A DNA stretch of 64,000 nt from Deinococcales bacterium. Its GTDB lineage: Bacteria > Deinococcota > Deinococci > Deinococcales > JAAFIG01. The DNA is taken from positions 29,084 to 93,083 of the forward strand of contig JANNVX010000015.1 in NCBI GenBank assembly GCA_031414595.1, written 5' to 3'. Position numbers and translations under genes: made by a program. Under the pieces are notes generated by a model. The model was not told the DNA's origin and searched no databases. It was given only the letters and a program-made list of their open reading frames with translations. This document shows positions 1-64,000 of the stretch, piece after piece. How positions within the stretch are numbered: position 1 is the first letter of the stretch; the number at the start of each line of letters is the position of its first letter.

Positions 1-1
1 A

Positions 2-808
2 GATGTCTGGGCGCTTCATGCGGTCGGGCATACCTTTGAAGAAACTGGGCGATTCCAAGACGGCATGAAGTATTATGATGTAAGGGCAAATGACTGGACA
101 ACAGGCAATTACTTTATTATTCATAACTGGTGGCACTATGCGCTTTTTGCACTTGAGGCTGGGGATACAACTCGGGTTCTCGAGATTTTTGATGCGGTGC
201 TGTTCAATGCCGATAATGGTGGGCTTGCGCTGCAATTGCTTGATGCCAGTGCTTTGTTGTGGCGCTTACGGCTCGAGGGACACCGCGAAGAGACACGCTT
301 CTCGAGACTCGCGGTGAAGTGGCTACACCGCATTGAACCTGCTTACTACGCTTTTAATGACATGCATGCAGTCATGGCTTTGGTTGGGGCGGGTTGGTTT
401 GAAGCTGCTTCAAACTTGATAAAAAGCCGTGAAACTTGGCTCGAGACCAAACCCAGTGCAAATAATGCTGTCATGACCAGAGAAATTGGTTTACCAGTCT
501 GCAAGGCGATTCTGGCGTTTGAACAAGGGCAGTTTGAAACGGTTGTGGCGCTGTTGTATCCGATTAGGCGCCGAATTCATGAATTCGGCGGTTCACATGC
601 CCAACGCGATGTGGTGCTAAAAACCCTGATTGAAGCGGCGTTGCGTGGTAAAAAATTTGACCTTGCCCAAGCGATGTTATCGGAACGAATTGCTGTCCGC
701 CCCAAAAGCCCATATAACTGGCTAAAGTATTCAAAAGCACTCGAGGGGATTGGACAAGACACCAAGGCAGTGTTAGCAAAGGACAAAGCCAAGGAGTTAC
801 TGCCCTAA
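2..808 (+). CDS. TPR protein, TTC38-like (5' end lies outside the window)
   Basis: Frame is open from position 2 (DVWALHAVGHTFEE...). Motifs HNWWHYALF, DASALLWRL, FNDMHAVMA and GGSHAQRD are typical of TTC38-like proteins. Confidence 0.8.
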   Translation, partial: DVWALHAVGHTFEETGRFQDGMKYYDVRANDWTTGNYFIIHNWWHYALFALEAGDTTRVLEIFDAVLFNADNGGLALQLLDASALLWRLRLEGHREETRFSRLAVKWLHRIEPAYYAFNDMHAVMALVGAGWFEAASNLIKSRETWLETKPSANNAVMTREIGLPVCKAILAFEQGQFETVVALLYPIRRRIHEFGGSHAQRDVVLKTLIEAALRGKKFDLAQAMLSERIAVRPKSPYNWLKYSKALEGIGQDTKAVLAKDKAKELLP

Positions 809-1905
809 GCCCGTTGGCTTCGTCGTTGCAGCAAGACCGAAATGATCAAAAGTGGTATTCCTAAAATGGTGATGACCGTAGGAATACTGTTTGGATTACT
901 GCCTAAATTCGAGGCGATGGGCGGAATCAGCACCGCACCAAAATTCGCGGCTGCCACAACCAGACTGGCTGCCGCCACACTCGAGGGGATGGCTTGGGTT
1001 AGCCAGACAAAACCAGTCGGGAAAATCGGTCCAAAACCAAGTCCAGCGATTAAGTAGGCATACGGCGCTAAACTTGGGACATGGGTTAATGCCAAACCAA
1101 AAAGCGCTAAGGCAGAACTGCCAATCACAATCGTGGCGGGCTTAAAACGCAGTGCAACAGGCACAATTAAAATTCTCGAGGCGGTGATTCCACCCCAGTA
1201 CAAGGCGTTCCATTGGGCGGCGGCTTCTTCGCTAAAGCCTAAACCTTCTTTGAGTTGCCGAGGCTCGAGGGTCGCGGCACTGACTTCTACGCCAACGTAG
1301 ACAAAGAACAGCAGCACAAATAAGCCAAACAGTCCAGAATACACAAATTGGGTTTTAGGCTGATCGAGCTTGCTGGCACGAAGCCCAAAAAGCAGTGGGG
1401 CTAAGGTTAAGGTGGCGGCGGCGACAATTAAAAATGGAGTTCTCGAGTCGTTTGGAAAAGCACTGACCAGAATTGGACCAACAATTGCCCCAACTCCAAA
1501 TAAGGCATTCAAGACATTGGTCATGGCGGTGCTGTTGTTGCCAAATCCTGTCGAAAAAATCGTGTTAAACGATAAATCCATCGTGCCAAAACCAAGCCCG
1601 ATAATCACTGCACCAAGTAATGCCAATCCCCAAATTGGAGCGAATGCCACGCTTAAACAGCCAAGAATCAGTAAACTCGAGCCGAGCAGCAGCACTTTGC
1701 GCCAACCCAAGTTTTTCTCGAGTGGGGCAAGCAGTAAAATTCCGGTCATTGAACCTAAAAAATGTGCCGAGACGATAAAACTGACGGTGTTGGCATCTAG
1801 GGCAAATCGTTCGCGGAAAGCAAATTGAGCCGGTCCATAAAAGGCTTGGACAGCGCCAATTAAAAGAAACGCAAGAAACCCCGCCGCCGTAGCCGTTTTA
1901 GTCAT
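805..1905 (-). CDS. MFS transporter (FucP/TsgA-like)
   Basis: About 12 hydrophobic segments; motifs LNALFGVGAIVGP, FFVYVGVEV and GPIFPT. Confidence 0.85.
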   Translation of the reverse strand: MTKTATAAGFLAFLLIGAVQAFYGPAQFAFRERFALDANTVSFIVSAHFLGSMTGILLLAPLEKNLGWRKVLLLGSSLLILGCLSVAFAPIWGLALLGAVIIGLGFGTMDLSFNTIFSTGFGNNSTAMTNVLNALFGVGAIVGPILVSAFPNDSRTPFLIVAAATLTLAPLLFGLRASKLDQPKTQFVYSGLFGLFVLLFFVYVGVEVSAATLEPRQLKEGLGFSEEAAAQWNALYWGGITASRILIVPVALRFKPATIVIGSSALALFGLALTHVPSLAPYAYLIAGLGFGPIFPTGFVWLTQAIPSSVAAASLVVAAANFGAVLIPPIASNLGSNPNSIPTVITILGIPLLIISVLLQRRSQRA

Positions 1906-1910
1906 CAGGG

Positions 1911-2861
1911 CTATTTAATCACAGCCCAAGCCGTATTGTGCAAGATGTCGCGCTTAAAGTCGCTGTAACTATGAATGTTCAGGCGTGGGTAACTCATTTT
2001 TCGACTCAAAAAGGCTGAGCTATTCGGTAACGGGGCAAGTAACGCCCCAGACTGCAAAGTTTGTCCCATACCTTCAAAGTAACCCAGCCAAGCCCGAAAA
2101 GCGGCACTGGTACGGCATTTTGTTTTGTAGTTTGGAATTGGTTTTGGTGGCATTAACCCGTAAGGATAAGCCAGAATCATACTCGAGGTTGCAAAGTATT
2201 TACAAACCCCATCTATTTCTTGAATCACAGCATTATTGCCCAGCTTTGACATCATTGGATGGCTGACCGTGTGGTTACCAATGGTAAATCCGTGCTGACC
2301 TAACCAAGTGATTTTAGCTTTGCTTTGCGTGCCAAAAGGAGCGCCGCCATTACTGACATTCAAAAAAAATGTGGCTTTGGCAGTTGGAAAAACACTGAGC
2401 AGCACACCCAAACCAGATGTTGGGTCTACCGAGCCATTCTTTAAGAACCGAAATTGACTGGCATGACCATCATCAAAAGAAATCGCAAAAGGCTTTTTAC
2501 CAGTGCAGCGCTTCATAAAGGTTGCTTTGGTGTACTCGAGTAAATCAATTAAGCAATAACTTTTAGTTGAGAGTGCCAATAAAATCTTCTTAAACTCGGT
2601 AGGTTTAAGGCTATAGATACTACTACTGTTGCTCGAGAAACGGTGCAGCATTAAAATGGGAATCCCCTTTTGTTTGCCGTACACATTCTTAGGTGCTGTC
2701 ATTGAACGCAATCTAGGCTTTTTTTGTTTCTTTTGACTGATTACAAATTCCGATTTTGTATTTAAGCGCTCAGTCAGGCGAGATACTTTTCTGGAAAAAG
2801 TTGCAGAACCACCAATCAGTAGAAAAACACTTAAAAACGCCATCAGTTTAATCGGCAGCAT
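1911..2861 (-). CDS. Polysaccharide deacetylase family protein (CE4/NodB), N-terminally anchored
   Basis: ISFDDG, GNHTVSHP and AYPYG motifs; hydrophobic N-terminus. Confidence 0.85.
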   Translation of the reverse strand: MLPIKLMAFLSVFLLIGGSATFSRKVSRLTERLNTKSEFVISQKKQKKPRLRSMTAPKNVYGKQKGIPILMLHRFSSNSSSIYSLKPTEFKKILLALSTKSYCLIDLLEYTKATFMKRCTGKKPFAISFDDGHASQFRFLKNGSVDPTSGLGVLLSVFPTAKATFFLNVSNGGAPFGTQSKAKITWLGQHGFTIGNHTVSHPMMSKLGNNAVIQEIDGVCKYFATSSMILAYPYGLMPPKPIPNYKTKCRTSAAFRAWLGYFEGMGQTLQSGALLAPLPNSSAFLSRKMSYPRLNIHSYSDFKRDILHNTAWAVIK

Positions 2862-10171: not shown

Positions 10172-11277
10172 TTTAACAAATGTGTCACATCCACCGCCCG
10201 TAACTCGGGGGCTTTTTGTTCTGGCAGCACATCCATTGCCACCAAGCCCGCGCCCAGTTCTGTGCCAGCCAAGTATTTGAGTTTATCTTTGGTGCGGTAC
10301 GGCGGGTAAAACTCGAGGTGAAGATGGGCTTCTGGGTGGGCTTGTCCGTCGGTTGGGGCTTGGTGCATGACCATCAGGTACGGAAAAATCGGGCGATTAT
10401 CAAACATATGGTCAAACTTTAAGAGCAGTGTTTTTAGCACTAGCGCCAAGTCTTTACGTTCTAAGTCTGTTAGCTCGAGTAAACTGGCTTTGGGGGCAAT
10501 CGGGGCTATCCAAGTTTCAAATGGGTACCTCGAGAAAGCTGGAATAAAAGCAATCACCGTTTCAGTTTGCACCACGACTCGTTCGCCAGATTCGATTTCG
10601 GCTCTTATAATCCCCTCGAGTAAACCCTGCCCTGTTTTTGCAAAGTGGGCAGTCTGCATCTCGAGTTCACGCGCTGGGACTGGTGGGATATGGTCATAGG
10701 CATAGATTTGCCCATGCGGATGATGCAGCGTCACCCCCATTTCTACACCGCGATTCTCGAAGGGCATGATGTATTTAATTTGTTCAAGTAAGCCAAGTTC
10801 GCGGTAACGGTCAGTCCAAACCTCGAGCAACAATTCGATTTGTGCCAAGGGTAGCCGCCCAAGACTCGAGTTTGCATCATTATCAAAAACCACGACTTCG
10901 CATTTGCCAACACCCGCTACAGTTGGGACAAGCCCAGCATCTAGGGCTTCGGGCGGGTTGTGGGCATCGAGTTCTAAACTCGGGAAACGATTATCAAAAA
11001 CCGCAATTTCATAATCCCCAACGGGTAACTCTGTAGGGATTTCTGGGTTGGTCATTCGAGCAAGCGGGTTGTAATCGGGTGGTGGTAAAAACGGACGACT
11101 CTGGCGGTGAGCCGCAAAAGTAATCCATTCACCACGAAGCGGATGCCAACGCATGTGTGGATTGCCAACAATTGGTTCATTGCCCGGACTCGGGGCAACA
11201 ATGCCGTCTGGAATGGGCATACTCGAGTACAGATGAAGGGCGCGACCATCTGGCTTGGTTAAGGTTTTTTTATGCAC
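10168..11277 (-). CDS. galT: Galactose-1-phosphate uridylyltransferase
   Basis: FENRGVEMGVTLHHPHGQ (HxHxQ), FDNRFPSL, KLKYLAGTE. Confidence 0.95.
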   Translation of the reverse strand: MHKKTLTKPDGRALHLYSSMPIPDGIVAPSPGNEPIVGNPHMRWHPLRGEWITFAAHRQSRPFLPPPDYNPLARMTNPEIPTELPVGDYEIAVFDNRFPSLELDAHNPPEALDAGLVPTVAGVGKCEVVVFDNDANSSLGRLPLAQIELLLEVWTDRYRELGLLEQIKYIMPFENRGVEMGVTLHHPHGQIYAYDHIPPVPARELEMQTAHFAKTGQGLLEGIIRAEIESGERVVVQTETVIAFIPAFSRYPFETWIAPIAPKASLLELTDLERKDLALVLKTLLLKFDHMFDNRPIFPYLMVMHQAPTDGQAHPEAHLHLEFYPPYRTKDKLKYLAGTELGAGLVAMDVLPEQKAPELRAVDVTHLLN

Positions 11278-16658: not shown

Positions 16659-16754
16659 AAAACTCCTTTGGGGATGGCTAATTTTCTTATTTTTGATTGT
16701 GGGAAAATCACTTTTCACAAGGCGAGGCTTCTTGACCATATACGCGCACCTTAC

Positions 16755-16781
16755 GGGCATGGTCGCATGCCTCGCCCCTAC
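16755..16781 (-). repeat. GTAG-family REP-like palindrome
   Basis: GTAGGGGCGAGGCATGCGACCATGCCC; related to the copy at 20833-20856. Confidence 0.6.
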
Positions 16782-16798
16782 GGTTTATCGAATAAATT

Positions 16799-25896: not shown

Positions 25897-25975
25897 AGGG
25901 CGAACACGGGGGTTCGCCCCTACCTGACGTGTTTTTACGCCGTAATTGTAGGGACAGACCCCTGTGTCTGTCCTG
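25897..25975. repeat. Back-to-back GTAG REP doublet
   Basis: GTAGGGGCGAACCCCCGTGTTCGCCCTG (minus, 25897-25923) and GTAGGGACAGACCCCTGTGTCTGTCCTG (plus, 25948-25975), with compensatory stem changes. Confidence 0.8.
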
Positions 25976-26027
25976 TTTTAACGATGATGTTGCATTCTTT
26001 CAGAGGCTCTGGCTGTACAATACGCCC

Positions 26028-27293
26028 ATGCTAACCGCGTTACAACTTGGGAATTTTAAGTCATGGCGTGAAGTCAATGTGCCACTAGCCCCAATCACAG
26101 GTTTTTTTGGCACAAACAGCAGTGGAAAAAGCAGCCTCCTGCAAGCGCTTTTGCTGATGAAGCAAACAGTAGAAAGTTCAGACCAAGGGCAGGTTCTCGA
26201 GTTTGGAGATGACAACAGTTTAGTACAATTGAGTTCGTACAAAGAACTTATTTGGAATCATGATTCAAATAATGCTTTGATTTTAGGATTTATGCGAGAC
26301 TTCAAAAACAGTAATCTTGAAATACTCTCAAAATCGTATTTGCCAATAAAATCTCTAGAGTTTGAGTGCAGAATTGTAGAGACTCGAGACACCATCAAAG
26401 TGGATTTTTTTCGATTTACTCCTGGAAATTCCAATCTGCCAATAAGTTCTGAATTTAGGCAAATTCGCAAATTTTATAAAATCGTTCATACAACTCAACA
26501 GGTACCAGGCGACTCTTTCTTCGGTTCTGGGAGTCTTGAAGTTGCTTTAGAAGAAGTTTTTCTTCAAATGTATTACTTAGGTCCACTTAGAGATTCTCCC
26601 AAACGATTTTACTCTTGGTCGGGCGCTGCCCCTTCAAATGTCGGTAAATCTGGCGAAAATACCATTGCTGCACTGCTTGCGGCTCGAGTTGGTGGCAATA
26701 AAGTCGGTGACACCCCACTCGAGAATTATATAGCCGAAAAACTAAAACAATTGGGTTTAATAGATTCTTTTCGGCTCGAGGAACTGCGCGAAGGCACAAA
26801 CATTTTTCGTGTGCTGGTGCGCCGTACTCCTGAATCCCCCGAAGTTTCCCTGACCGATGTTGGCTTTGGTGTTTCCCAAGTGCTGCCTGTGCTGGTGCTG
26901 TGCTATTACGTCCCCGAAGGTTCTACCATTCTGCTCGAGCAACCCGAATTGCACCTGCATCCCAGTGTTCAATCTGGTTTAGCCGATATTTTTATTGATG
27001 CTTATAAAACCCGTGGAGTACAAATTATTCTCGAGAGTCATTCGGAGCATTTATTACAGCGTTTGCAAAGGCGAATTGCCGAGGAGTTTGAAGGAATTAC
27101 CAACACAGACATTAGTGTTTACTTTTGTCGTCTCGAGCATGGCGAATCGAAACTCGAGTCGCTGGAACTCGATGAGTACGGCAATATCCATAATTACCCA
27201 GAAGAATTCTTTGGAGACCGTTTTGCAGAAATGGTCGCCGTGACAGAAGCAGGAATTGCAAGACGAGAAAAGAAGGTTCTCGAGCCTGTATGA
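26028..27293 (+). CDS. ABC/AAA_21-type ATPase with a DUF3696-like C-terminus
   Basis: GTNSSGKSS, DVGFGVSQVLP, LLEQPELHLHP, ESHSEH. The ATG at 26028 is 6 nt after TACAAT. Confidence 0.85.
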   Translation: MLTALQLGNFKSWREVNVPLAPITGFFGTNSSGKSSLLQALLLMKQTVESSDQGQVLEFGDDNSLVQLSSYKELIWNHDSNNALILGFMRDFKNSNLEILSKSYLPIKSLEFECRIVETRDTIKVDFFRFTPGNSNLPISSEFRQIRKFYKIVHTTQQVPGDSFFGSGSLEVALEEVFLQMYYLGPLRDSPKRFYSWSGAAPSNVGKSGENTIAALLAARVGGNKVGDTPLENYIAEKLKQLGLIDSFRLEELREGTNIFRVLVRRTPESPEVSLTDVGFGVSQVLPVLVLCYYVPEGSTILLEQPELHLHPSVQSGLADIFIDAYKTRGVQIILESHSEHLLQRLQRRIAEEFEGITNTDISVYFCRLEHGESKLESLELDEYGNIHNYPEEFFGDRFAEMVAVTEAGIARREKKVLEPV

Positions 27294-27781
27294 GTGCTTT
27301 TGTGATTGATGAAAATGTGCTTGTGAATGCCATGAAGGAAGCGCCCGACGAGAATACAACTGACGTATGTATCCGACAATGTGCCAAGACTTTATTGGAT
27401 GTCAGAAAAGGCATTGTTATTTTGGATGACACAAACATCATTTACCGAAAATACCGTAGCCATTTTAGAGAAACACCGACAAGAAAAACACCTGAATTCT
27501 TGGTTTGGTTGCTCAGTGTCCAACATATGCCCAAGTATTGCGAACGGGTTAAATTCACGCCTCTCGCGCCTAGTTTTCTCCAAGTCCCGCTTGAATTGCG
27601 AATCCCAGACGCAGAAAACAAGGTCTTTGATTTAGATGACCACATTTGGTTGGCGGTAGCCAAAGCCAGTAAAAATAGCCCGACCATTCTGAACGCCACC
27701 GATAGCGATTGGAAAAACTGGGAACAACAACTGCTAAAACACGGTTTTGATGTTCGCTGTATTTGCCAATTAAAAATCTAA
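27290..27781 (+). CDS. Putative PIN-fold protein coupled to the ATPase
   Basis: VIDENV, DLDDHIWLAVA and ATDSDW acidic pattern; ATGA overlap with the ATPase gene. Confidence 0.6.
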   Translation: MSAFVIDENVLVNAMKEAPDENTTDVCIRQCAKTLLDVRKGIVILDDTNIIYRKYRSHFRETPTRKTPEFLVWLLSVQHMPKYCERVKFTPLAPSFLQVPLELRIPDAENKVFDLDDHIWLAVAKASKNSPTILNATDSDWKNWEQQLLKHGFDVRCICQLKI

Positions 27782-44141: not shown

Positions 44142-44804
44142 CTAATTTGAAGCTTCAACAAAACCAATGTGCATTATAAAACGTGGCAATCCAGACTCGA
44201 GAATGGTATTTGCGCGAAAGCGTTCAAATAATGCTTGAAGTTCAATGTAGAACTTATCGGCTTGATCGGCGGGCATCGTTGCCTCTGCCCAGTCGTGTAA
44301 GGGGCGACGTTCCGACGAAAAGTGGTTGAGGGTTTGGGCTGGCTGCGACATCGGTTGGAGATTCAAACAAGCGCCTTTTTGGTCACGGTATAAACGCAGT
44401 TGCCAATGCTCGGTCAAACGAAAACCTACAGCAGCCACATTTTGTGAAAATCGGTCATAGTCTCGTTGCATGATTCGTTGTAGTAATTCAGTATTGTCTA
44501 AACCCTCGAGTGGAACAACTGGGAATATAAATTCGTCTGCGACAGCTTGATAATACTTAATCGCACTTCCTGCTCGGGTTTCGATTCGAGTGATTTGTAT
44601 GAGATTAAGTTTTAAGAAACGATTCGTCCAATAAGCCATGACGTTGAGTTTTACACCGACTTCTAAGGCAGCATTTTTGACGGTTGTTTCTGTTCCAATA
44701 AATTGAGCGAGGTAATTGGAAACGTGTTTTTTCATAAATAAAGTGGCAATTCGAGGTTGCTTTATTTCTTTGGTCACGAAGCTGGTCAACTTTTGTTCTG
44801 TCAT
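44142..44804 (-). CDS. Putative winged-helix transcriptional regulator
   Basis: TVKNAALEVGVKLN...LNLIQITR...GSAIKYY; divergent from a membrane protein gene. Confidence 0.65.
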   Translation of the reverse strand: MTEQKLTSFVTKEIKQPRIATLFMKKHVSNYLAQFIGTETTVKNAALEVGVKLNVMAYWTNRFLKLNLIQITRIETRAGSAIKYYQAVADEFIFPVVPLEGLDNTELLQRIMQRDYDRFSQNVAAVGFRLTEHWQLRLYRDQKGACLNLQPMSQPAQTLNHFSSERRPLHDWAEATMPADQADKFYIELQALFERFRANTILESGLPRFIMHIGFVEASN

Positions 44805-44964
44805 CTGACCAGTTTACCCTGTAGATTTTTTTCACGCCTAAAACAAACTGTTTAGGCTTTTGATAAGCCAGTGTAGATTCTCTAAAGAAGTCTTTTTGAC
44901 TTGTTTGCAGCTAAGTTTTTTCGTAAAAAGAGTTAGAGAACCTATGCGGCAAAGCGAGGTTATT

Positions 44965-46038
44965 ATGAATAGTGTTAGTCAGCAAAGCTCAGGTCAACGC
45001 TTACGTCCCTATGCTAGTCAAGTTGATAATTTTGGAACAATAATTCTTGGCTTATGGTTAATTATCGGGGTTTTTATTGATGGTTTTGCCCATAATAATT
45101 TACGAGGCACGATAGAAAGTTTTTTTACACCTTGGCATGGCATTTTGTACAGTGGGTTTGTGGCAGCCGCAATTTGGACAATGTGGTTGGTGATTCGTGA
45201 AATTCGCCGTGGACATACAGGTTTAGCCGCAATTCCAGTTGGTTATGAACTAGGGTTGCTTGGCGTGTTTATTTTTGGAGTCGGTGGCATTGGCGATTTA
45301 ATCTGGCATCAAGTTTTTGGAATTGAAACAGATGGAGCGGCTTTATTATCGCCAACTCATTTACTACTTTTAACTGGTGGAACACTGTTGGTCACCAGCC
45401 CACTACGTTCAAGTTGGGCAGCACTTGGTCGCACACCAGGTTTTATTGAGTTTCTACCAACGTTACTCTCGAGTTTAGCCGCCTTTTCTTTTGCTTCTTT
45501 TTTTCACCTTTACGGCTGGGGATTAACCAATGTCCCAGATGGAATGGTGTACATGGATTGGTTAAAGAAAAATACCAATGGCGGCTCGATTTTTGTGGCA
45601 CATGCGTCGTATTTAGCGGCTGTGGGTGCATTGTTTAGCAACGTCATTATTATCTCAATGGTACTTTTTTTGCTGCGCCGATGGCAGACTCCATTTGGTA
45701 CTTTCCTCATTATTTTTACCTTGAACACTACAGGGATGGCAATTATTGGTGGCGCAGCCAATGGGGTGGCGATATTGGCAAGTGCTTTGGCTGGATTATT
45801 TGCAGACGTGTTTATTGCGTGGCGCAAACTATCGAACAAAAATATTCTCGAGTTCCGCGCCTTGGCATTACTACTACCACTTGTGATTTGGGGATTGCAT
45901 TATCTTATGCGTCATTTAACGGGTGGAATTGCACTCGAGGTCGAATACTGGACAGGTATTACCCTCATGACAGGTTTAAGTGGTTTGGTTTTAAGTCTGT
46001 TGATACTACCGCCCGAACTGCCAAAAGGAATAGATTGA
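44965..46038 (+). CDS. Polytopic membrane protein with two D-x3-H...P-x-H motifs
   Basis: DGFAH...FFTPWH and DLIWH...LSPTH; about 10 TM segments. Start uncertain (44944 or 44965). Confidence 0.75.
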   Translation: MNSVSQQSSGQRLRPYASQVDNFGTIILGLWLIIGVFIDGFAHNNLRGTIESFFTPWHGILYSGFVAAAIWTMWLVIREIRRGHTGLAAIPVGYELGLLGVFIFGVGGIGDLIWHQVFGIETDGAALLSPTHLLLLTGGTLLVTSPLRSSWAALGRTPGFIEFLPTLLSSLAAFSFASFFHLYGWGLTNVPDGMVYMDWLKKNTNGGSIFVAHASYLAAVGALFSNVIIISMVLFLLRRWQTPFGTFLIIFTLNTTGMAIIGGAANGVAILASALAGLFADVFIAWRKLSNKNILEFRALALLLPLVIWGLHYLMRHLTGGIALEVEYWTGITLMTGLSGLVLSLLILPPELPKGID

Positions 46039-46068: not shown

Positions 46069-47214
46069 ATGAACTTAACCGATGACCAACGCGCTGTTCT
46101 CGAGATGGTGACTGATTTTTGCAAAAAAGAAATCGCGCCATTTGCTGCTCAGTACGATAAAAGCGGCGAGTACCCTTGGCGGCAACTCGAGAAACTAGCA
46201 GAACTTGGCTTGCTCGGTGCAACTGTGCCAGAAGCGTATGGCGGCTCTGGACTTGATGCTGTGACTTATGCGTTGTGTCTCGAGCAAATCTGTAAAGCCG
46301 ATGCTAGTGTGGGCGTAATTGTTAGCGTGACCAACGGTTTACCACAGCAAATGCTGCTGCATCATGGTACTGAAAGCCAAAAACAGCGCTGGCTCGTGCC
46401 ATTGGCTCGAGGCGAAAAAATTGGTGCGTTTTGCCTGACCGAAGCCAATTCGGGTTCAGATGCCGCTAGTTTACGAAGTCGCGCAACTCAAGACGGTACA
46501 GATTGGATTCTCGAGGGGCAAAAAGTCTGGATCACCTCTGGCGGACAAGCCCAGACCTACTTGGTGATGGCACGTACCAACAACGAACGCGGCTCGAGGG
46601 GAATTAGCTGCTTTGTTCTCGAGAAAGGGATGCAGGGTTTAAGTTTTGGTAAACCCGAAGAAAAAATGGGCTTACACGCGGCTCACACCACGACGGTCAA
46701 CATGGATGGTGTGCGGGTCCCCGGCGAACACATGATAGGCACTGAAGGACAAGGACTGATTATTGCCCTCTCAAGCTTAGATGGTGGAAGAATTGGCATT
46801 GCCATGCAAGCCATCGGCATTGCCCAAGCTGCTTTTGAAGCTGCCAGAGATTATGCTTTTGCCCGTGAGCAATTTGGCTCGAGACTGTCCGAGTTTGAAG
46901 GAATTAGTTTTAAGATTGCGGACATGGCAACGCGAATTCACGCCAGTCGTTTATTGGCACTAGACGCTGCCCGCCTCAAAGAGGCTGGAAAACCATACAG
47001 CAAAGAAGCAAGTATGGCAAAACTCTTTGCTTCAGAAACTGCAAATTTTGTGGCTAAAGAAGCGATTCAGATTTTTGGTGGCAATGGTTACAGCCGAGAA
47101 TACCCAGTCGAACGCCATTACCGCGATGCCAAAATCACCGAGATTTACGAAGGCACTTCTGAAATCCAGCGCCTTGTCATTTCGAGACAAGTTTTTAAGG
47201 ACTCGAGGCAATAA
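46069..47214 (+). CDS. Acyl-CoA dehydrogenase
   Basis: FCLTEANSGSD, KVWITSG, EEKMG, REQFG, IYEGTSEIQR. Confidence 0.95.
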   Translation: MNLTDDQRAVLEMVTDFCKKEIAPFAAQYDKSGEYPWRQLEKLAELGLLGATVPEAYGGSGLDAVTYALCLEQICKADASVGVIVSVTNGLPQQMLLHHGTESQKQRWLVPLARGEKIGAFCLTEANSGSDAASLRSRATQDGTDWILEGQKVWITSGGQAQTYLVMARTNNERGSRGISCFVLEKGMQGLSFGKPEEKMGLHAAHTTTVNMDGVRVPGEHMIGTEGQGLIIALSSLDGGRIGIAMQAIGIAQAAFEAARDYAFAREQFGSRLSEFEGISFKIADMATRIHASRLLALDAARLKEAGKPYSKEASMAKLFASETANFVAKEAIQIFGGNGYSREYPVERHYRDAKITEIYEGTSEIQRLVISRQVFKDSRQ

Positions 47215-48615
47215 TTATTTGTAATAATTTTTAAGCATCTCTTGGTATTCTGGCGGCAAACGTGGGTCAAGCACCGCAGATTCGGCGGCTCGGCGGTACG
47301 TTGGGCTATTGGTGGGGCTGGTGAAACCATTTCTTGGGTCGCCGGGTAGTTGCAAAGCGCCACTGCGGACATTGTTGCCTTTGGGTGTGCCTTGGAGGTA
47401 CTCGAGTTTGCCCTTGCTGCTTTGACGGTTGGCAGCCACAGGGTTGCCTTGTGCGTCCCTTGCGCCTTGTCCGGGGCTGGTGTTGCGGCTTCCATTCCCG
47501 TTCGGGTTTTGAGGGTCAAACCCTTGGTAGTCCTCACCTTTGTCTATTTTGTCTTGAGGGTTACGTCCACGTTGTCCACCTTCTGTGCCGTTACTTGATT
47601 GGTCTGCGCCATTTTGCCCATTTTGTCCAGTGCCGTTTTGTCCACCCTGAGCGCCGTTTTTTCCGTTCTGTCCTTGTCCGTTTTGGCTGCCTTGTTGCCC
47701 ATTCTGCCCGTTTTGGTTGCCCTGTTGTCCGTTCTGCCCGTTTTGGCTGCCTTGTTGCCCGTTCTTGTTGCCTTGTTGCCCCTGTCCAGTTCCACTTTCC
47801 CCGTCGCCATTTTTTCCGTCGGCACTGCCCGAATTTCCAGCGCTTGGTGGGTTGGCATCCTCGACTTTACCGCCAGATTCTCCTGTTTTATTTGGGTCGC
47901 GGTCCCTTACTGCGCCACGCTCTAAGGCTTCTAAGAATTCTTTAGAGATGGCTTCGGGGTCTTCGGTGGCACTGCCACCGCCGGGTTTCAGAGCGCCTAA
48001 ATTCTGCTCCGACGCACTGCCGCCAGAAGCTGCCTGCCCTGGTTTGGCATCTGCTCCTGCTGGTGGTGCATCTCGAGTCGGTGCATCTAAAATTGGTTCG
48101 GAGGATTGTCCGGCTGCTGAAGAAGGTGAATTGGGATTATCAAAAGATTCTCGGGTGACAGTGCGGTCAGTTGGGCTAAGGGCAGCATTAACGGTGCGAG
48201 GTGGTAATACCAGCAGCAAACTTAAAAGGAGTGCCATACCCAAACCCTCGAGCCACGGGAGGGCTGGGAGGTCGGTGTTTTTTTGGGTCGCAAGCGCCAT
48301 GTTCAGCAAGCGGTTTTGGAAACCATGTTCGTCTGGTTTGGCGCTTAGGGCAGTGGTGTAGGCTGCGCCAGCCGTATTTTCGATTTCTTGCAGGGTTTTT
48401 TCTGGTTTGGCGGTTGGCATAAAAACGCCAAGCAGCGCAAGCAATAACCACAACGGCGACGCGCCTAAAGCCCAGACCACCAAAAGTAAAAGTGCCACAC
48501 CAATCAGCACGGCTCGAGTTTTAATTTGAATGGCGCGTCGGGTAAACCATTGGCGGTGCAAATTTAAGCTGGGGTGTTGCCAGTAAGTGGGTAGATTTAA
48601 CTTGCGGCGTATCAT
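47215..48615 (-). CDS. Membrane protein with a long Gln/Gly/Asn-rich tail
   Basis: SD AAGGAG and ATGA overlap at 48612-48615; TM segments; terminal RLPPEYQEMLKNYY. Confidence 0.75.
   Translation of the reverse strand: MIRRKLNLPTYWQHPSLNLHRQWFTRRAIQIKTRAVLIGVALLLLVVWALGASPLWLLLALLGVFMPTAKPEKTLQEIENTAGAAYTTALSAKPDEHGFQNRLLNMALATQKNTDLPALPWLEGLGMALLLSLLLVLPPRTVNAALSPTDRTVTRESFDNPNSPSSAAGQSSEPILDAPTRDAPPAGADAKPGQAASGGSASEQNLGALKPGGGSATEDPEAISKEFLEALERGAVRDRDPNKTGESGGKVEDANPPSAGNSGSADGKNGDGESGTGQGQQGNKNGQQGSQNGQNGQQGNQNGQNGQQGSQNGQGQNGKNGAQGGQNGTGQNGQNGADQSSNGTEGGQRGRNPQDKIDKGEDYQGFDPQNPNGNGSRNTSPGQGARDAQGNPVAANRQSSKGKLEYLQGTPKGNNVRSGALQLPGDPRNGFTSPTNSPTYRRAAESAVLDPRLPPEYQEMLKNYYK
47678..47781 (-). 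repeat. 30-bp coding tandem repeat (GQQGSQNGQN units)
   Basis: About 3.5 copies of CCGTTTTGGCTGCCTTGTTGCCCATTCTGC. Confidence 0.85.
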
Positions 48616-49118
48616 GTCACTCCTTGTTGGCGGGGTTTGGTCAAAAGCATCAAACCAATACATACAATACTCGAGCCAATTAAGACAATCATTGGTAAAG
48701 CATAAACACTGGGCTGAAAACCATTAAAAAAAAGTGCCAGCACGCCCAAGGCAGGAAAAATCTGTGAGGCGCTGGGCAGCATCCGTGCAAAGCCATATGA
48801 ACCTAAAGCAATCAGGTAACTCGAGAAAATACTGCTTGGGAAGCCTTCGCGGGCTTCTATCGAAAATGCCCAAAGTTCTGGCGGTGCAAGAATAATTGCC
48901 CATAAGGTTAGGGCGCTTAAGGCATCTAGGGGTTTGGCTTGGTGCAGCATTGCGCCTAACACCATTAACCCAATTAAACGCAAACAACCTATCGCATGAA
49001 AGCCCAGTGGCTCGAGTCCAGTGGTTCTGGGGCTAAGGGCAGCCAGGGTTAGTATCTCGAGGGCAATGACCACACTGAGGACTTGATAGGGTATTTCTTG
49101 TTCAAAAATATCGTTCAT
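48612..49118 (-). CDS. Hypothetical membrane protein
   Basis: Several hydrophobic helices; overlaps both neighbours. Confidence 0.65.
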   Translation of the reverse strand: MNDIFEQEIPYQVLSVVIALEILTLAALSPRTTGLEPLGFHAIGCLRLIGLMVLGAMLHQAKPLDALSALTLWAIILAPPELWAFSIEAREGFPSSIFSSYLIALGSYGFARMLPSASQIFPALGVLALFFNGFQPSVYALPMIVLIGSSIVCIGLMLLTKPRQQGVT

Positions 49119-50365
49119 GGCTGTTCCGCCAAGGCAATCAGGAGTGTGCCACCTTCTTGTTGCGCCATCACGCTTCCTTCAGGCAGAACTTGCATCAGGT
49201 CTACATACTCATCCCACGGCAGGGTTTCATAAATTTGGCTTTGAATTTGCCGACTTGCACCAACGGCTAAGGGTTCTTGACGACCAAAGCCACGAATAAA
49301 AATTTTATCGAGCTTAGCGCTACTTTCGTTGATTAACTTGCCGTTCTCGAGCCGCATCGGGATTCGGGTCGCCGACGGCGGGGTGAGGTAACGGATTTGC
49401 TGCCAACCTGCGTGTTGTAAAGTGGTGCTACCAATTTTGTAATCGCGCTGAATATGATTTGTGCCTTCCAAGGGTAGTACACCTGCCGGCAAATTCCAGT
49501 CTGGACGCAAAGAAAAACGGGCGTGAATCGTCCACTTTAAGCCCCAACCGCGAGCGCCAATCAGCACCGTGCGTTTGGTTTCATGAAACGGGGCTACTGG
49601 TTGCGATGCCCACCAACCCAAAACCGCTAAAACAGTGCTGCCAGCCGCTAAACCAATGGTGTAACGAATCTCAGAACGCTTTAGGCTGTACAAAAAAAGC
49701 AGCACCACAAAAGTCACCACCGACCAAAGCCCGAGGGCAAAATGACGGCGCTCTGGGGCTTTAGCCGTCGGAGCGTGCTGCTCGAGAATTTTTAGCAACT
49801 TAATTTGCGGTGCAGAGGTTTTTATTGCTCCTAAGCCAGTATTTCCGACGGGTATGCCAGCAGAGATTTCTTTTAAGTTTGCACCCCCAGCCAAGACACT
49901 TAAAGCAGTTTGTGGCTCGAGGCGACCAAAAATCGTATGTCCCGCCAAGTACAAACTCGGCTCTAGTGGCAAGCGGGTTTCATTTAATTCAAGTGGTACA
50001 GCACTGGGTTCAAAGCGTTTGGTGATTGTGCCAGTCGCACCACTTAAGGTAATTTTTACCATACGGGTCGTGGTGATTGGCAGAATTAACCGTGTTTCCC
50101 GGATTCCAGTTTCATCGGGCAATTCTAAAAAAGCAGTAATCGGAGTTAAGCCCTCGAGAACCCGCCCTTCAGAAGTCTCGAGCTTGGCAGTAAACGCCCC
50201 GCTATTTGTGGCAACCAAACGAAATTCCACCCAGCTTTGACTCGAGAATTGCCCTTGCCAGCCGAGTTCGGCAAAAGCTCCGGGTATTTGCACCCTACCT
50301 TCGTCTTCGGCTCGAGCCATGCCGAATAGCAGTAAAGCCACCAAGAAAAAACAGACTCGAGTCAT
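49115..50365 (-). CDS. Hypothetical exported/membrane protein
   Basis: Signal peptide and two internal TM helices; ATG 6 nt after TAAACT. Confidence 0.7.
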   Translation of the reverse strand: MTRVCFFLVALLLFGMARAEDEGRVQIPGAFAELGWQGQFSSQSWVEFRLVATNSGAFTAKLETSEGRVLEGLTPITAFLELPDETGIRETRLILPITTTRMVKITLSGATGTITKRFEPSAVPLELNETRLPLEPSLYLAGHTIFGRLEPQTALSVLAGGANLKEISAGIPVGNTGLGAIKTSAPQIKLLKILEQHAPTAKAPERRHFALGLWSVVTFVVLLFLYSLKRSEIRYTIGLAAGSTVLAVLGWWASQPVAPFHETKRTVLIGARGWGLKWTIHARFSLRPDWNLPAGVLPLEGTNHIQRDYKIGSTTLQHAGWQQIRYLTPPSATRIPMRLENGKLINESSAKLDKIFIRGFGRQEPLAVGASRQIQSQIYETLPWDEYVDLMQVLPEGSVMAQQEGGTLLIALAEQP

Positions 50366-52469: not shown

Positions 52470-52506
52470 AAAGAACCGCTCGAGATTGTTTCCCGAGCGG
52501 TTCTTT
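52470..52506. terminator. Terminator after the S8 lipoprotein gene, with CTCGAG in the stem
   Basis: AAAGAACCGCTCGAGA/TCCCGAGCGGTTCTTT; one G-U pair in the minus-strand RNA. Confidence 0.8.
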
Positions 52507-52518
52507 TGCTTTGCAAGT

Positions 52519-55500
52519 TTACCAAGTCGCTGCAAAGCCAGCGACGCTCGTACCAAGGATGATGCTTAGTTGCGTTGGGAAATTTTGACTAAAATCAAAA
52601 TTAGTACAAGTGCTACCAGGAGATGGATAACACGAAAAGTATTCTGTAAATCCATCGTAATTGGTATCTATCAGGCTACGAAATGCGTATCCTGTGGCAG
52701 CCAGAATACCTGTGAAGCGGTAGACATAACCCTGCCCTTCGACCCAGTTCATGACAATTCGCACTGGTTCAGGGTTTGAGATAAAGGCATTGCCATCAGC
52801 ATTTACTTGTCGGGCTTCAATCATCAATCGTCCAGATGGGTTTGAGGCTGTGCCTTGAATATAGTACACAGGGGCTGTGGTGGACTGCAAACCAACTGTG
52901 GCAATGATACTGCCAACATATGCGCCATCGGCTAAACCAGTACGATTGAGGGTCACATTAACGGTTGTTGTGGCGTTGCCCGCCAGTGTTCCTGTGGTAC
53001 TGTTGCTGACTGTGGCAGATAAGAAAGCATTGGATGTGGTTATCGTAAAGTTACCCGTTGTGGCTGTCATGTTCTCTAAAGTTAAATCGCCAGTTGTTGC
53101 ACTGGTGCTTAAGTTAAGTCCCGGTAAGCCAGCGTTAAAAGCATTCTTAAATTGTAAGAATGCGCCAGGAAAACCGTTTCCAATTGCGCCATTGACGGCA
53201 GCTTGGGCATCCACCAAGCCGGCTCCACATCCTTTAGCACAGTCGTTCGCAGCATTTAAGACCGAAGCGGTGGTTTGTAAATAATAGGTGGCTTGGTAAA
53301 CATTGAGTTTTGGTAATGGCACAGCTTGGGCTAAACGCGCCGAGTTCATCAGGGCAATAATCCCAGCCACATGAGGGGCTGACATGCTCGTACCTTGTTT
53401 TTGACCATAGCCCCAAGTGGTGCAGCCTGTAGTAGGACTTGGCTGTCCTTGTGGTTGTAAAACTCCTAAGACAGTAATCATACAACCTTGGGTTGATAAG
53501 ACTTGATTTGGACTTAGAGCAGATAAACTATCCCCGCCAGGTGCAGTAATTTCGACTGATGTACCAAAGTTAGAAAAGTATGAACGTTTCGCCACAGTAG
53601 CTGTTGGACCAACTGAACCAACAGTAATCACACCATTTTGACCTGCTGGGGCGTATTTAGACGCATCATCGTTGCTATTTCCTGCCGAAACCACCACTAT
53701 TTTACCAGCCGCGTTAATTTGGTCTATTGCATCTTGGTAGGATTGGTCTGTACCTAACCCACCAAGGCTCATGTTCAAGACATCGGCTGGAAATGGGTTT
53801 GTAATGTTACTTGTGCCACTGCTGGTGGTGGTCGAAACGGTAATACCAGCCGCCCAGAGCATCCCACGAATAATATCGGAGCGCTGACCGCCAGAAGGTC
53901 CTAGCACCCGAACAGCCATCATTTCCACACCCCAACCAATTCCCGCAATGCCAGTTGAGTTATTGGTGCAAGCGCCAATTGTTCCAGCCACATGTGTCCC
54001 ATGGAAACTCGTACCAGAGTATGGTCCAAGGTCATAAGGGTCGTCGTCATCTACGGTATCGGGTTCAGTGCCTGCTGTGCTGTAACTCACAAAATCGTAC
54101 CCCGGTTGCCATTTATTGGTGGTGCAGTACAAATCTGGGTTAGTGCTGGGTTCTCGAGTGCTGTTGGTGTCATTGCCAATATAGTCGGCTTTGTTGTACA
54201 AAATACCTGTATCTAAAACTGCGACACGGACATTGGGTGTTCCAGTGGTTGTATCCCATGCCGAATTGATTTTTGCCATGCCGTAATGCCAAATATTATT
54301 GGGGCTGGTGGCAGTGGTCTGCACTGGGTAAAGTGGATCATTAGGGGTGGTGATATGAGCGCGGTCAATATAATTTGGCACTGCCCATTCAACATCGGCT
54401 CGAGCGCGGAGTTGGGCAATAAAATTCAGGGTATCCACGGCTATTGGTGATTCTGCTTGAATACCATCAATGCTGTTAGTGGCTGGGGTATTTTGGGCAG
54501 TCAAAACGACTGTTGTGCCGTAAAGTGGTTCTTGGTTATCGACAGCTAAAGTCCGCGCCGCCACACCAGCCGCAGGGGTTTTGAACTTGACAATGGCTTG
54601 CCCTTCGACAAATTCGGCTTCTTTGGGAATACCCAAGGCTTCTGGGCTACTGGACGTGACATACGGTACTTTAATTGTCCCAGAATAGGTTAGCCCAACA
54701 GGAGTGACAATATATATTGGGGCAGTCGAAATTTTAATGTTATCAAACTGAATTTTTGTGCAACTAGCGCAACCTGTAAGCGCAGCATTTGGTCCACCAC
54801 GAAAAGCAATTTCTTTTGCCCCAGCAATCCCACTGGCTCGAGTCACGACATTGGTTGTATTGACTACACCTTCCTCTGGGCTGCGGGTAAAACGCATCAC
54901 GGGTTCGTTCGCGATGACAAAGCTCATTCTAAAACGGTACGGGTCGTTGGCAGCTGTTGCGCCTTTTGGCATTTTCAAAGCTATCGTCACTTCGCCGGTA
55001 TCGCCAGACGCAAACGCCCGTGTCCAAGTTGGGGTAGCGGTGGCACAATTGGCGGTGCAGCGCCGTGCAACATAGCCATACTCGAGAACTTCATCGGTGT
55101 TATTAATATAACCAGCAGTTCGGGCTTGTTGGCTGGCAAGGGCGGCTTCGCTGATATGGAAAAATTGCAAATCGGCTTTATTGGCATCTACAGTGGTGGT
55201 ATCGTTTTGCATTGTATGGGTTGGTTTGACTTTCTGGGCATCAGTCGCGCTGGTAATCGGGTTGTTACCAAAGTCAAGGATGGTATTTAAGGCAGTTCCA
55301 CCAATATTGGTGCTTTTAGCAACTGCGTAGAGCGTTAGGTTGTCAAAGGCTTGGTTGGCAGTGATTTGAAAAGTTGCAGTAATGAAATTATCGGTATTGC
55401 CTATGTTGCTGATGTTCTGGTATGTGCCGGGGGTAATAAAAGTGACCGCAGAATCGGCTAATGCCGCCGCAGGACGTATTTGTCCAGAGTTGCTGTCTGA

Positions 55501-56304: not shown

Positions 56305-56871
56305 TTAAGTCTCAAGCGGTGGTAATTGCTCATACAAACTCGATAAAACCACTTCAAAATCTAAACTTGGGAATTGCAATACAGCATTCCCCTCGAGCTT
56401 TTTATAACGCCATTCAGCCCTATCCCTCGAGAACACTTCGGCAATCGGTTCGACTTGCGAAAGCAATACATACTGCTCCAAACTTGGGATTTGTTGATAG
56501 GCTTGCCATTTCTCGCCTCGGTCTATGGCTTCGGTGGTGACTGACAAGACTTCAACAATGATTGTTGGACGGTGCTTAACTCGAGCTTGGTCAAGTGACC
56601 TGTCGCAGTACACAAATGAATCTGGATAATACCCCTTACCACTTGGGGTTCGTACCAGCACATCATTGGATTGTGCATAACAGCCTTTTGGAAAGGCTTT
56701 GTTTAAAAGCATTGCGGTTAAAATAATTGCCAGTAAATTATGTCTATCTGTTCCGCCAGCCATAACAAACAGATTACCATCTACAAACTCATGGCGTTCT
56801 TGACTATGAATTTCAAAGGCAAGAAAATCTACAAAAGTCGCTTGGGTTTTGATAGGTGCATCTCTGGTCAT
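56305..56871 (-). CDS. Uma2 family PD-(D/E)XK endonuclease
   Basis: RHEFVDG..MAGGT..H, YYPD, IVEVLS.TTE.IDRGEK, Y.QIPSL.QYVL. Confidence 0.9.
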   Translation of the reverse strand: MTRDAPIKTQATFVDFLAFEIHSQERHEFVDGNLFVMAGGTDRHNLLAIILTAMLLNKAFPKGCYAQSNDVLVRTPSGKGYYPDSFVYCDRSLDQARVKHRPTIIVEVLSVTTEAIDRGEKWQAYQQIPSLEQYVLLSQVEPIAEVFSRDRAEWRYKKLEGNAVLQFPSLDFEVVLSSLYEQLPPLET

Positions 56872-56918
56872 GGGTTTAGTATACTCGAGGGTCATGAGGT
56901 CGGTATACTCGAGTGAGT

Positions 56919-60648: not shown

Positions 60649-60821
60649 AATTCCCCCATTCCTTGTTGATTCACTTTGGTTGAGCCGTCTCGAGGAACGC
60701 TATCCCACGCTGAATCTGGGACTTTCGCGGCTGAACGCTCTAAATTATCAAGAAAAATGGAGATAGGACTTTTCTTTTTACGTGGGCGTTTTGATTTAAT
60801 AGAATCAAGAATTAAAGTCAT
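60645..60821 (-). CDS. Putative antitoxin
   Basis: 58 aa, overlaps the PIN gene; VP...W..VPRDGS motif; ATG 6 nt after TACAGT. Confidence 0.7.
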   Translation of the reverse strand: MTLILDSIKSKRPRKKKSPISIFLDNLERSAAKVPDSAWDSVPRDGSTKVNQQGMGEF

Positions 60822-60869
60822 ATATTCACTGTAGTACAAACCTTCTCAAATTTCCATGCTTAAATTTGC

Positions 60870-62447: not shown

Positions 62448-62520
62448 GGCTGCAATCTAACACAATTATGCTCTAAACTAAAAATTGTTTTCTGTGAAAG
62501 CATCGCTTATGCTACACAAT

Positions 62521-63570: not shown

Positions 63571-63623
63571 GTTTACTCGAGACCACGCTTATAAAATGTA
63601 AATCTAAAATGGTAAAATGAGCC

Positions 63624-63860
63624 ATGAGCCAAATCGAAGTAGAACAAGCTGCATTGCAATTGCCGATGAAAGCACGGGCGTTTCTAGCCCAAAAGCTCTT
63701 GGAGAGTTTAGAGCAACCCAGCGAAGCCGAACTCGAGGAATTATGGCTTGCCGAAGTTGGAGAACGAATTAAACGAGTCGAACGTGGTGAGTCAAAACTG
63801 ACTTCTTTTGCCGATGCGTTGCAACAAGCTCGAACCGTGGTTGCTAAAACCCATGCTTGA
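63624..63860 (+). CDS. Putative addiction module antitoxin (usually paired with RelE/ParE)
   Basis: ALQLP..RA.LAQKLLESL...W.AE...R pattern. Confidence 0.8.
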   Translation: MSQIEVEQAALQLPMKARAFLAQKLLESLEQPSEAELEELWLAEVGERIKRVERGESKLTSFADALQQARTVVAKTHA

Positions 63861-63863
63861 ACT

Positions 63864-64000
63864 TAGTGCAGCGTCGGATTAAGAAGTAATCTTTGGATAC
63901 CTGTCCGCAAATTTCGTCCGAGCAGATTTGATCGAAAATTGCCAATTAATCTTTATACAGCGCTTATTCCGCTCTTTAACCCAAGTCTTTACTTCACGCT
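63864..64000 (-). mobile_element. End of an IS630-family element (continues beyond the window)
   Basis: Minus-strand frame 63998-63879 reads REVKTWVKERNKRCIKINWQFSIKSARTKFADRYPKITS*, a typical IS630 transposase C-terminus. A TA at 63864-63865 marks the likely end. Confidence 0.75.

Follow-up and report, generated by a model that had tools for sequence, protein, structure and literature searches.

Why does one six-base palindrome, CTCGAG, recur hundreds of times in a 64,000-nucleotide (nt) stretch of DNA from an uncultured Deinococcales bacterium, and what keeps it there? The stretch, termed the window here, comprises positions 29,084 to 93,083 of contig JANNVX010000015.1 (C15) in assembly GCA_031414595.1, which holds 4,488,778 bases in 120 contigs at a GC content of 47.2%, with a completeness of 94% judged from marker genes. 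The analysis described below shows that CTCGAG is a genuine highly iterated palindrome, carried by a clade of uncultured Deinococcales.

Abundance and definition of the motif

Direct counting located 341 copies of CTCGAG across positions 1–64000 of the window, in genes on both strands and in the spacers between them. This density of approximately 5.3 sites per kilobase (kb) is 46-fold above that of dinucleotide-preserving shuffles, which predict 7.43 copies (standard deviation 2.86, maximum 18) and none of which, out of 100, reached the observed number; the GC content, measured in 4-kb steps, ranges from 0.458 to 0.520. The whole genome contains 23,235 copies where base composition predicts 972, a ratio of 23.9 and an average of one site per 193 base pairs (bp), and the runner-up among palindromic hexamers has a ratio of 2.15. 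An earlier reading of the window from its letters alone (the original prediction) had estimated an enrichment of about 25-fold, in agreement with the genome-wide ratio, and its site counts, 31 for the initial 5 kb and 58 for the initial 10 kb, were reproduced exactly.

The motif consists of exactly six bases, because flanking positions carry at most 0.026 bit genome-wide, and the absence of information in the flanks also means that the sites are not copies of a repeat. GAGCTC, the hexamer proposed as a control, occurs 6 times in the genome. Other palindromic hexamers built around TCGA, for which equal enrichment had been considered, are all depleted (ATCGAT, 89 copies; GTCGAC, 26; TTCGAA, 29), and 69% of all TCGA tetramers (23,235 of 33,474) sit within CTCGAG. 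The suggested Markov check was of no help: the maximal-order observed-to-expected ratio (O/E) of 1.16 is uninformative, since 23,235 of the 25,876 CTCGA pentamers already lie within the hexamer.

Each of the 18 hexamers that differ from CTCGAG by one base is present in 173–1,368 copies, and the site outnumbers every one of them. The transversion neighbours are depleted genome-wide, an outcome not expected of a single T:G-type repair pathway.

Coding and intergenic sites

The genome was divided into coding and intergenic DNA with 4,013 crude longest-open-reading-frame (ORF) calls, covering 90% of its length. Coding DNA contains 5.15 sites per kb, and intergenic DNA 5.34. By codon phase, the coding sites of the genome number 12,352, 4,086 and 4,371; those of the window number 187, 57 and 61 in phases 0, 1 and 2, with 36 more between the crude gene calls, so the motif does occupy all three frames and intergenic DNA, as had been claimed. 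Density is flat around gene starts and stops, apart from a slight decrease over the initial 30 bp of genes and a slight increase near stop codons.

Synonymous codons were shuffled inside each ORF in 10 replicates, which preserves the protein and the codon usage of every gene. The shuffled genes contained a mean of 2,017 sites compared with 20,809 observed, a 10-fold excess, and this null is conservative because the codon usage that it preserves has already been inflated by CTCGAG. The excess therefore survives the refutation test attached to the earlier claim that codon usage alone is insufficient, and the equal intergenic density points the same way. An enrichment arising as a by-product of codon usage, amino acid composition, a repeat family or an assembly artefact might be suspected from the weight of phase 0, in which CTC GAG reads as Leu-Glu and to which 12,352 of all 20,809 coding sites belong. 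Such an origin has next to no probability: in addition to the shuffle result and the intergenic density, CTC accounts for only 7.9% of Leu codons without a following Glu, and the trait recurs across 19 independent family assemblies and one genome (G253) labelled to a different family. Codon usage and artefact are thereby excluded as explanations.

The ratio of sites to a single neighbour type is the same in the two compartments, at 20.5 in coding and 17.6 in intergenic DNA for transition neighbours, and at 55.1 and 55.5, respectively, for transversion neighbours. Provided that forward and back mutation rates are equal, these ratios give the site a scaled advantage of approximately ln(18–55), that is, 3–4.

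The consequences reach the proteome. Of 20,614 Leu-Glu pairs, 12,352 are written as CTCGAG, and Leu-Glu is the most over-represented dipeptide (O/E 2.23), with Met-Glu (0.52) and Val-Glu (0.72) depleted. Comparison was made with G197, a Deinococcales genome without the trait (GC content 49.7%), through 308 reciprocal-best orthologues with 56.8% identity and 113,481 aligned dipeptide columns. At these columns Leu-Glu occurs 1,841 times here and 1,081 times in G197, a ratio of 1.70. Just 31% of the Leu-Glu pairs encoded by CTCGAG here are also Leu-Glu in G197, the leading alternatives being Leu-Asp, Ile-Glu, Leu-Gln and Val-Glu; in G197 itself, CTCGAG encodes 118 of 1,148 Leu-Glu pairs.

Structural RNA genes resist the force yet do not escape it: 69 transfer RNA (tRNA) and transfer-messenger RNA genes, totalling 5,680 nt, contain 7 sites where genome density would give 29.4. 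No 16S ribosomal RNA primer motif was found in the assembly. At C56:144–2945, no fewer than five tRNA genes (Ser, Ser, Cys, Thr and Glu) are clustered within 3 kb, with one CTCGAG per gene.

Conservation, turnover and spacing of sites

The window was aligned to seven genomes of the same genus, which cover 16,471–41,837 of its positions at 75–92% identity, and hexamers in matching codon phase served as the null for conservation. Sites were intact beyond expectation in all seven: 204 of 234 compared with 157 expected in G005, 199 of 224 (132) in G001, 145 of 189 (86) in G004, 132 of 184 (48) in G003, 110 of 157 (40) in G007, 82 of 131 (28) in G006 and 49 of 87 (17) in G002. Expressed as fractions, 56–89% of sites are intact, against 20–67% of phase-matched hexamers.

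In three trios with G004 as the outgroup, 22, 21 and 18 losses were scored versus 6, 5 and 5 gains; a further 12, 10 and 7 changes were ambiguous. The losses are mainly C-to-T changes at either cytosine, and both cytosines of the site decay at similar rates, which indicates that there is no single deamination hot spot. Several of the apparent gains are 2–4 bases away from the hexamers of the closest relatives. Turnover is illustrated in the eight-genome alignment at window positions 171–184, where this genome reads CTCGGG at 171 and CTCGAG at 179, and its two closest relatives read CTCGAG at 171 and have no site at 179; for the site at 179, the match, flanks included, is to a more distant genome (G003 or G007). 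A putative recombined allele lies at 10865–10870, three bases off the CTACTG of the three closest relatives, with the hexamer and its flanks matching the more distant G003. The same pattern is seen at 46186, where hexamer and flanks match the more distant G007. In the alignment, the gains at 179, 10865 and 46186 look like alleles imported by recombination rather than multi-base mutations.

Insertion of the six bases as a unit was considered and rejected. None of 19 six-base indels holds CTCGAG, and 16 of 490 indels of any length overlap a site; sites arise by substitution.

Close pairs of sites are rare genome-wide, with a pair correlation (g) of 0.37 at 7–12 bp. In intergenic DNA the correlation is 0.53 at 8–12 bp, 0.97 at 13–20 bp and 0.9–1.1 beyond 30 bp, so that short-range repulsion, once entertained as an attribute of the force itself, arises mostly from coding DNA and is nearly gone outside genes. 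Intergenic placement is near random (near Poisson), and distances of up to 400 bp contain no helical or other short period (amplitude ≤0.01).

Distribution among the Deinococcales

All 18 other sampled genomes of the family, from five genera, carry 4.3–6.8 CTCGAG per kb. GAGCTC is present in at most 25 copies in 15 of them and in 114, 161 and 568 copies in the remaining three. Other families of the order have 0.6–2.9 CTCGAG per kb, and a Deinococcus-like genus (g7) avoids the motif, with 128–457 copies in genomes of 4.2–4.8 Mb. A search for relatives based on polynucleotide phosphorylase returned mostly distant phyla and one useful Deinococcales record; this relative, whose segment of that gene is 93% identical, has 71 copies of CTCGAG in 10,652 bases.

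The trait also occurs outside the family. G253 contains 24,536 sites in 3.5 Mb (7.0 per kb) and 30 copies of GAGCTC, and the genomes G196, G198 and G200 have 3.6, 3.5 and 2.6 CTCGAG per kb. In sampled sequence the ratio to composition is 27 for G253 (GC content 51%), 1.2 for G197 (50%) and 12.8 for G013, a closed genome of the family with 23,515 sites (20-kb sample, 60.6%). The trait is independent of GC content, given its presence at approximately 47% here and at 60.6% in the G013 sample.

Two shortcuts to mapping the trait were abandoned. G253 and G197 share a genus label and appeared to form a close pair with and without the trait, yet 31 G253 ORFs are 57.5% identical to G197 and 56.4% identical to this genome, which makes the pair a deep one. 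The sequence CTCGAGNCTCGAG was tried as a phylum-wide proxy, in a tally that includes G265; it has 38–275 copies in 10 of 10 family genomes and at most 24 in each of 291 others, yet it missed G253.

Avoidance of other palindromes

In the two trait-bearing genomes examined closely, the CTCGAG trait accompanies extreme avoidance of other palindromes. O/E is 0.10 or lower for 34 of the 64 palindromic hexamers here, for 27 of 64 in 136 kb of G253 and for 3 of 64 in 1.27 Mb of the trait-less G197, a three-genome comparison that is a correlate and not a test. Several palindromic hexamers have fewer than 10 copies in the 4.5 Mb of this genome. The log ratios of the palindromes correlate between this genome and G253 (r = 0.65) and hardly with those of G197 (r = 0.14). 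In tblastn searches, the 26 methyltransferases of this genome had no match in 56% of G197.

A gene of the restriction-endonuclease-like Uma2 family (PF05685) lies on the reverse strand of the window at 56305–56895. Uma2 matches number 24 in this genome, 6–40 per genome in the 18 other family genomes and 0–1 in the Deinococcus-like genus. Copy number was rejected as a correlate of the trait, because genus g9 has 10–16 copies without the enrichment.

Imported DNA, CRISPR arrays and viruses

Fifty site-free gaps of at least 1,400 bp are present in the genome. The largest have GC contents of 31–39% and, by this composition, look like recently imported DNA that lacks the motif. The longest site-free stretch of the window, at 52485–54152 (C15:81568–83235; a gap of 1,674 bp), is not foreign-looking: it lies within a gene for a 1,039-residue subtilase and has a GC content of 47.7%. 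Motif density separates resident from imported DNA in these metagenome bins.

Outside the window, three arrays of clustered regularly interspaced short palindromic repeats (CRISPR), at C11:14152–16121, C82:70753–71697 and C101:43–1634, are built on two related 35-base repeats with one CTCGAG in each. The repeat core has no match in the 18 other family genomes. The 58 spacers (2,117 nt) contain 9 copies of CTCGAG, compared with 0.43 expected from their own composition (Poisson P = 9e-10) and 9.5 at host density; of the 31 palindromes avoided by the host they contain 3 copies in total, compared with 13.4 expected. If this result is taken as it stands, mobile DNA encountered by the host bears the host's whole palindrome signature. 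Invading DNA that carries the motif fits a force acting on any DNA that lives in these cells, and fits a chromosome-only function less well. No full-length match of a spacer was found elsewhere in this genome; a 29-base partial match on contig C3 was set aside, as it falls among ordinary chromosomal genes.

An attempt to reach viral contigs through a three-site pattern was also rejected. It returned at least 126 stretches, and among the 80 loci scored the 18 densest have GC contents of 63–72%, many contain GAGCTC and none resembles the host with its 47% GC. Five whole viral records carry 0.6–3.7 CTCGAG per kb. Three viral records with GC contents of 63–66%, L328, L385 and L313 (G314, G312 and G313), contain 100, 40 and 18 copies of CTCGAG and 1, 0 and 1 of GAGCTC, the same asymmetry.

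Methyltransferases and nucleases

The original prediction tied the motif to an orphan methyltransferase while stating that the window encodes no candidate. The second statement is correct: among 45 ORFs scanned in the window, the sole methyltransferase is of the tRNA (uracil-5) type. The first finds no support. Five Pfam families of DNA methyltransferases were searched in this genome and in G013, G011, G010, G006 and G012, representing five genera, and the proteins were clustered at 40% identity and 60% coverage. This genome has approximately 26 candidate DNA methyltransferase genes, and no orthologue group extends beyond three of the six genomes; G010 has no C5 methyltransferase and G013 has no N4/N6 methyltransferase of the beta class. 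On the METHYLTRANSFERASE question, no conserved orphan methyltransferase was found across the family, in a search of genomes that are mostly incomplete bins; a novel fold would escape the profiles used, and non-orthologous enzymes sharing one specificity may be present.

A TaqI-like methyltransferase had been proposed as an enzyme to look for, and a TaqI/BstVI-like one does exist in this genome, but it occurs in only 3 of the 18 other family genomes. It is encoded on the 2,134-bp contig C89 as a 559-residue adenine methyltransferase with Eco57I and TaqI_C domains, which aligns over 99% of its length, at 48% identity, with a protein named ‘Modification methylase BstVI’ at NCBI. Its nearest relatives of solved structure are two unnamed adenine-specific methyltransferases and M.BseCI. 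Beyond this gene the contig has no ORF longer than 94 residues. With this distribution, and with no first-look candidate in the closed genome G013, the enzyme was rejected as a family-wide cause. Genes of this type stand alone on very short contigs in two assemblies (C89 here and the 1,787-bp C78 of G001), and a relative in G016 lies within a 1,403-residue frame, an arrangement that suggests a mobile or repeat-flanked gene that may often be lost in binning.

A second TaqI_C enzyme is encoded at C4:28783–30786. The Eco57I-type proteins of five relatives are type ISP, IIG-like or partial, and none has a TaqI_C domain. A permuted SPPY methyltransferase on C72 was dismissed, as matches at E values of up to 1e-5 turned up in 6 of 18 genomes, and matches of at least 62% identity in only 3. 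Enzymes of the D12 class have matches in all five genomes but are not orthologous, the copy here being 26–28% identical, over partial alignments, to those of G013 and G011. A screen for [DNS]PP[YFW] gave 52 ORFs, 21 of which were run against Pfam, and added only housekeeping enzymes of the RsmD, RsmC and PrmC types; an ORF with NPPY and no Pfam match (C18:13994–14800) was discarded because its cysteine and histidine pattern, judged by eye, is nuclease-like and not that of a methyltransferase. The XhoI nuclease family PF04555 has no match here, which proves little, as the profile is also silent in all 14 control genomes.

Mechanism and alternatives

A directional force at the level of DNA, specific for CTCGAG, acts independently on each candidate site in all long-resident DNA: in genes in all three frames, in spacers between them, in CRISPR repeats and in the foreign DNA sampled by CRISPR. 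It favours the full hexamer over each of its 18 neighbours and keeps established sites from decaying, and it prevails over codon preference and over mild constraint on proteins. We infer that a bias in repair or gene conversion, exerted through a putative protein that reads CTCGAG and aided by recombination between lineages, is the likeliest mechanism, and assign it a probability of roughly 40%. In heteroduplex or mismatched DNA with the site on one strand and a sequence one letter off on the other, repair guided by this protein would resolve to the site-bearing strand, and homologous recombination between lineages would then spread the site-bearing alleles. The reader is unlikely to be a methyltransferase conserved in the family, because none was found.

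Several observations weigh against biased repair. The excess of losses over gains in the three trios, although based on small numbers and on a parsimony count that is biased, is not expected of a drive that is still rising. The six transition neighbours of CTCGAG have O/E values of 1.06–1.26 and show no depletion. No Vsr-type endonuclease was found in this genome, and no candidate for the reader protein emerged from the analysis. Positional conservation is predicted equally well by selection at each site, from which drive is inseparable with these data; for the HIP1 palindrome of cyanobacteria the same pattern was taken as selection and not biased repair by Xu et al. 2018 (PMC5861425). The spacer result comes mostly from array C11 (8 sites in 950 nt; of the other two, one has a single site in 476 nt and one has none in 691 nt), and searches for the sources of the spacers gave no match in the 18 family genomes or in cultured phages, one chance match in plasmids and, for two spacers, no exact match in IMG/VR.

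Nearly the same facts as those addressed by biased repair are explained if CTCGAG is a selected tag of kin or self, its density being read to prefer the DNA of relatives in transformation or recombination or to spare it from defence, and mobile elements copying the tag. This possibility, doubtful but in need of serious weighing, draws on the motif marking long-resident DNA and being missing from low-GC islands, on spacer-source DNA at host density, on the mosaic haplotypes among the genus genomes in the window, and on the palindrome avoidance, which can be taken as a sign of heavy restriction pressure and DNA traffic. For HIP1, a 2026 paper proposes a role in DNA-uptake recognition and a 2024 preprint reports improved transformation. 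A tag of this kind has no known receptor, with the limit that no search for competence genes was made; phages need no uptake tag; a reading of density per fragment should saturate, and intergenic sites show no density homeostasis. A six-base palindrome without flank information would also be a weak specificity signal next to uptake sequences, whose length is 9–12 bases. More speculatively, and still with less than even odds, the density of CTCGAG may be a lineage-wide identity mark of DNA, read by an undescribed system other than a methyltransferase that converts near-sites, or spares or imports DNA according to mark density; phages and plasmids of these hosts would have had to adopt the mark. 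If this were true, hyper-iterated palindromes would represent a common response to extreme restriction pressure, one that arose separately in cyanobacteria and in Deinococcales.

Two further proposals come from work on HIP1. In the HIP1-like model of Elhai 2015, which is also that of the original prediction, a methyltransferase would mark CTCGAG and methyl-directed repair would turn near-sites into sites. The C89 enzyme with its similarity to the BstVI-named methylase, and the second TaqI_C enzyme on C4, could serve such a model; incomplete metagenome-assembled genomes may lose such genes on short contigs; and CTCGAG methylation is known in nature, as 5-methylcytosine in a Halorubrum strain and also in hot-spring genomes. 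The model is nevertheless weakened, and we regard it as improbable, in view of the patchy occurrence of the C89 enzyme (3 of 18) and the C72 SPPY enzyme (6 of 18), the lack of a first-look candidate for the C89 enzyme in closed G013, the absence of any orthologue group in more than three of six genomes, the genomes without C5 (G010) or beta-class N4/N6 (G013) enzymes, the housekeeping yield of the motif screen and the like decay of both cytosines. That CTCGAG is instead the binding site of a nucleoid or chromosome-organising protein, as Xu et al. 2018 proposed for HIP1, is very unlikely: the analogy, the uniform density along genes and spacers and the positional stability of sites are in keeping with it, but the near-Poisson intergenic placement and missing helical period lend no support to the chromosome-organisation role raised in the original prediction, and invader DNA sampled by CRISPR also carries the motif.

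Other features of the window

A repeat of approximately 60–85 bases lies at 16704–16790, just 3′ of a phosphoglucose isomerase gene. Dozens of copies with 84–100% identity occur in this genome and its genus relatives, and the window copy has no CTCGAG; the element is probably a small mobile or repetitive extragenic palindromic (REP)-like element. At 25929–27781, the forward strand encodes an AAA_15/AAA_21 ATPase bearing a DUF3696 tail; an ORF of 163 residues, without a Pfam match, follows and overlaps it, and the pair looks like a two-gene defence-type module. Three successive ORFs on the reverse strand at 47215–50365, of 482, 168 and 416 residues, have no Pfam match at E values of up to 1e-5, and further ORFs without a Pfam match lie at 44142–46038.

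Comparison with known systems

To our knowledge, three decades of work on HIP1 (GCGATCGC, highly iterated palindrome 1), all of it in a single phylum, have yielded neither an accepted function nor an accepted mechanism. HIP1 and the alternate HIPs of cyanobacteria are, like CTCGAG, short GC-rich palindromes that are over-represented tens-fold in genes and spacers, conserved at orthologous positions beyond neutral expectation and scarce in imported DNA, in hosts with many restriction-modification genes; the comparison with HIP1 drawn in the original prediction is upheld on each of the first counts, namely excess, location and conservation. In the literature, HIP1 is over-represented 15- to 300-fold (Xu, Lawrence and Durand 2018, PMC5861425), HIP sites occur approximately once per 1,000 nt and a motif-specific methyltransferase is present wherever a HIP motif is frequent (Elhai 2015, PMC4390886), and HIP1 has the cognate methylases DmtA and DmtC (the 2026 paper). 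CTCGAG differs in having six letters and not eight, in its host, which belongs to the Deinococcales and thus to another phylum, in being about five times denser, in doubling one dipeptide of the proteome and in having no conserved cognate methyltransferase that could be found to set beside DmtA and DmtC. A periodic distribution on the 10–90 kb scale is a further feature of HIPs; for CTCGAG, the distances covered extend up to 400 bp and show no period. The word CTCGAG is absent from Elhai 2015, and full-text literature searches, which did not cover supplementary files, found no published account of CTCGAG iteration.

Dam-type strand-discrimination sites go with a conserved orphan D12-class methyltransferase, and none was found to accompany the motif here. 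The uptake signal sequences (USS) of Pasteurellaceae and DNA uptake sequences (DUS) of Neisseriaceae are 9–12 bases long, oriented and non-palindromic, have informative flanks, occur about once per kb, confer an uptake preference that has been shown experimentally and are thought to accumulate by recombination-linked drive. They share with CTCGAG a genome-wide distribution in thousands of copies, the marking of resident DNA and an effect on coding sequence, whereas CTCGAG is a six-base palindrome with no oriented core and with flanks of at most 0.026 bit. Chi-like recombination hot spots are oriented, strand-skewed motifs; CTCGAG has no orientation, and CRISPR spacers carry it at host density. 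Dcm/Vsr very-short-patch repair in Escherichia coli enriches CCWGG and depletes CTWGG, a modest effect limited to T:G mismatches. It exemplifies how a sequence-specific repair bias alters the oligonucleotide content of a genome, as proposed for CTCGAG, but here all 18 neighbours lose to the site, no Vsr was found and G010 lacks a C5 methyltransferase. Restriction-modification systems of the XhoI, PaeR7I and BstVI type recognize the same CTCGAG sequence, BstVI being an isoschizomer of XhoI, and the C89 methyltransferase is related to the BstVI-named protein; restriction targets are normally avoided, as in genus g7, whereas here the site is 24-fold enriched.

What is new in the present case is the lack of a family-conserved methyltransferase, the host-level density in spacers, the equal ratio of sites to neighbours in coding and intergenic DNA and the association of the trait with extreme palindrome avoidance. 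CTCGAG provides a second, independent and denser case than HIP1, in another phylum and with a shorter motif, and so separates the general features of iterated palindromes from those that may be specific to cyanobacteria. To the general part belong the conservation of site positions, the scarcity of the motif in imported DNA, its occurrence in CRISPR repeats and its association with heavy avoidance of other palindromes, and the methylases DmtA and DmtC may be the part peculiar to cyanobacteria. The case also shows the reach of a DNA-level force on a proteome, with 1.7 times as many Leu-Glu pairs at aligned positions as in a relative without the trait, and, as genomes with and without the trait exist at similar GC content in the clade, it offers a direct comparative route to the responsible gene.

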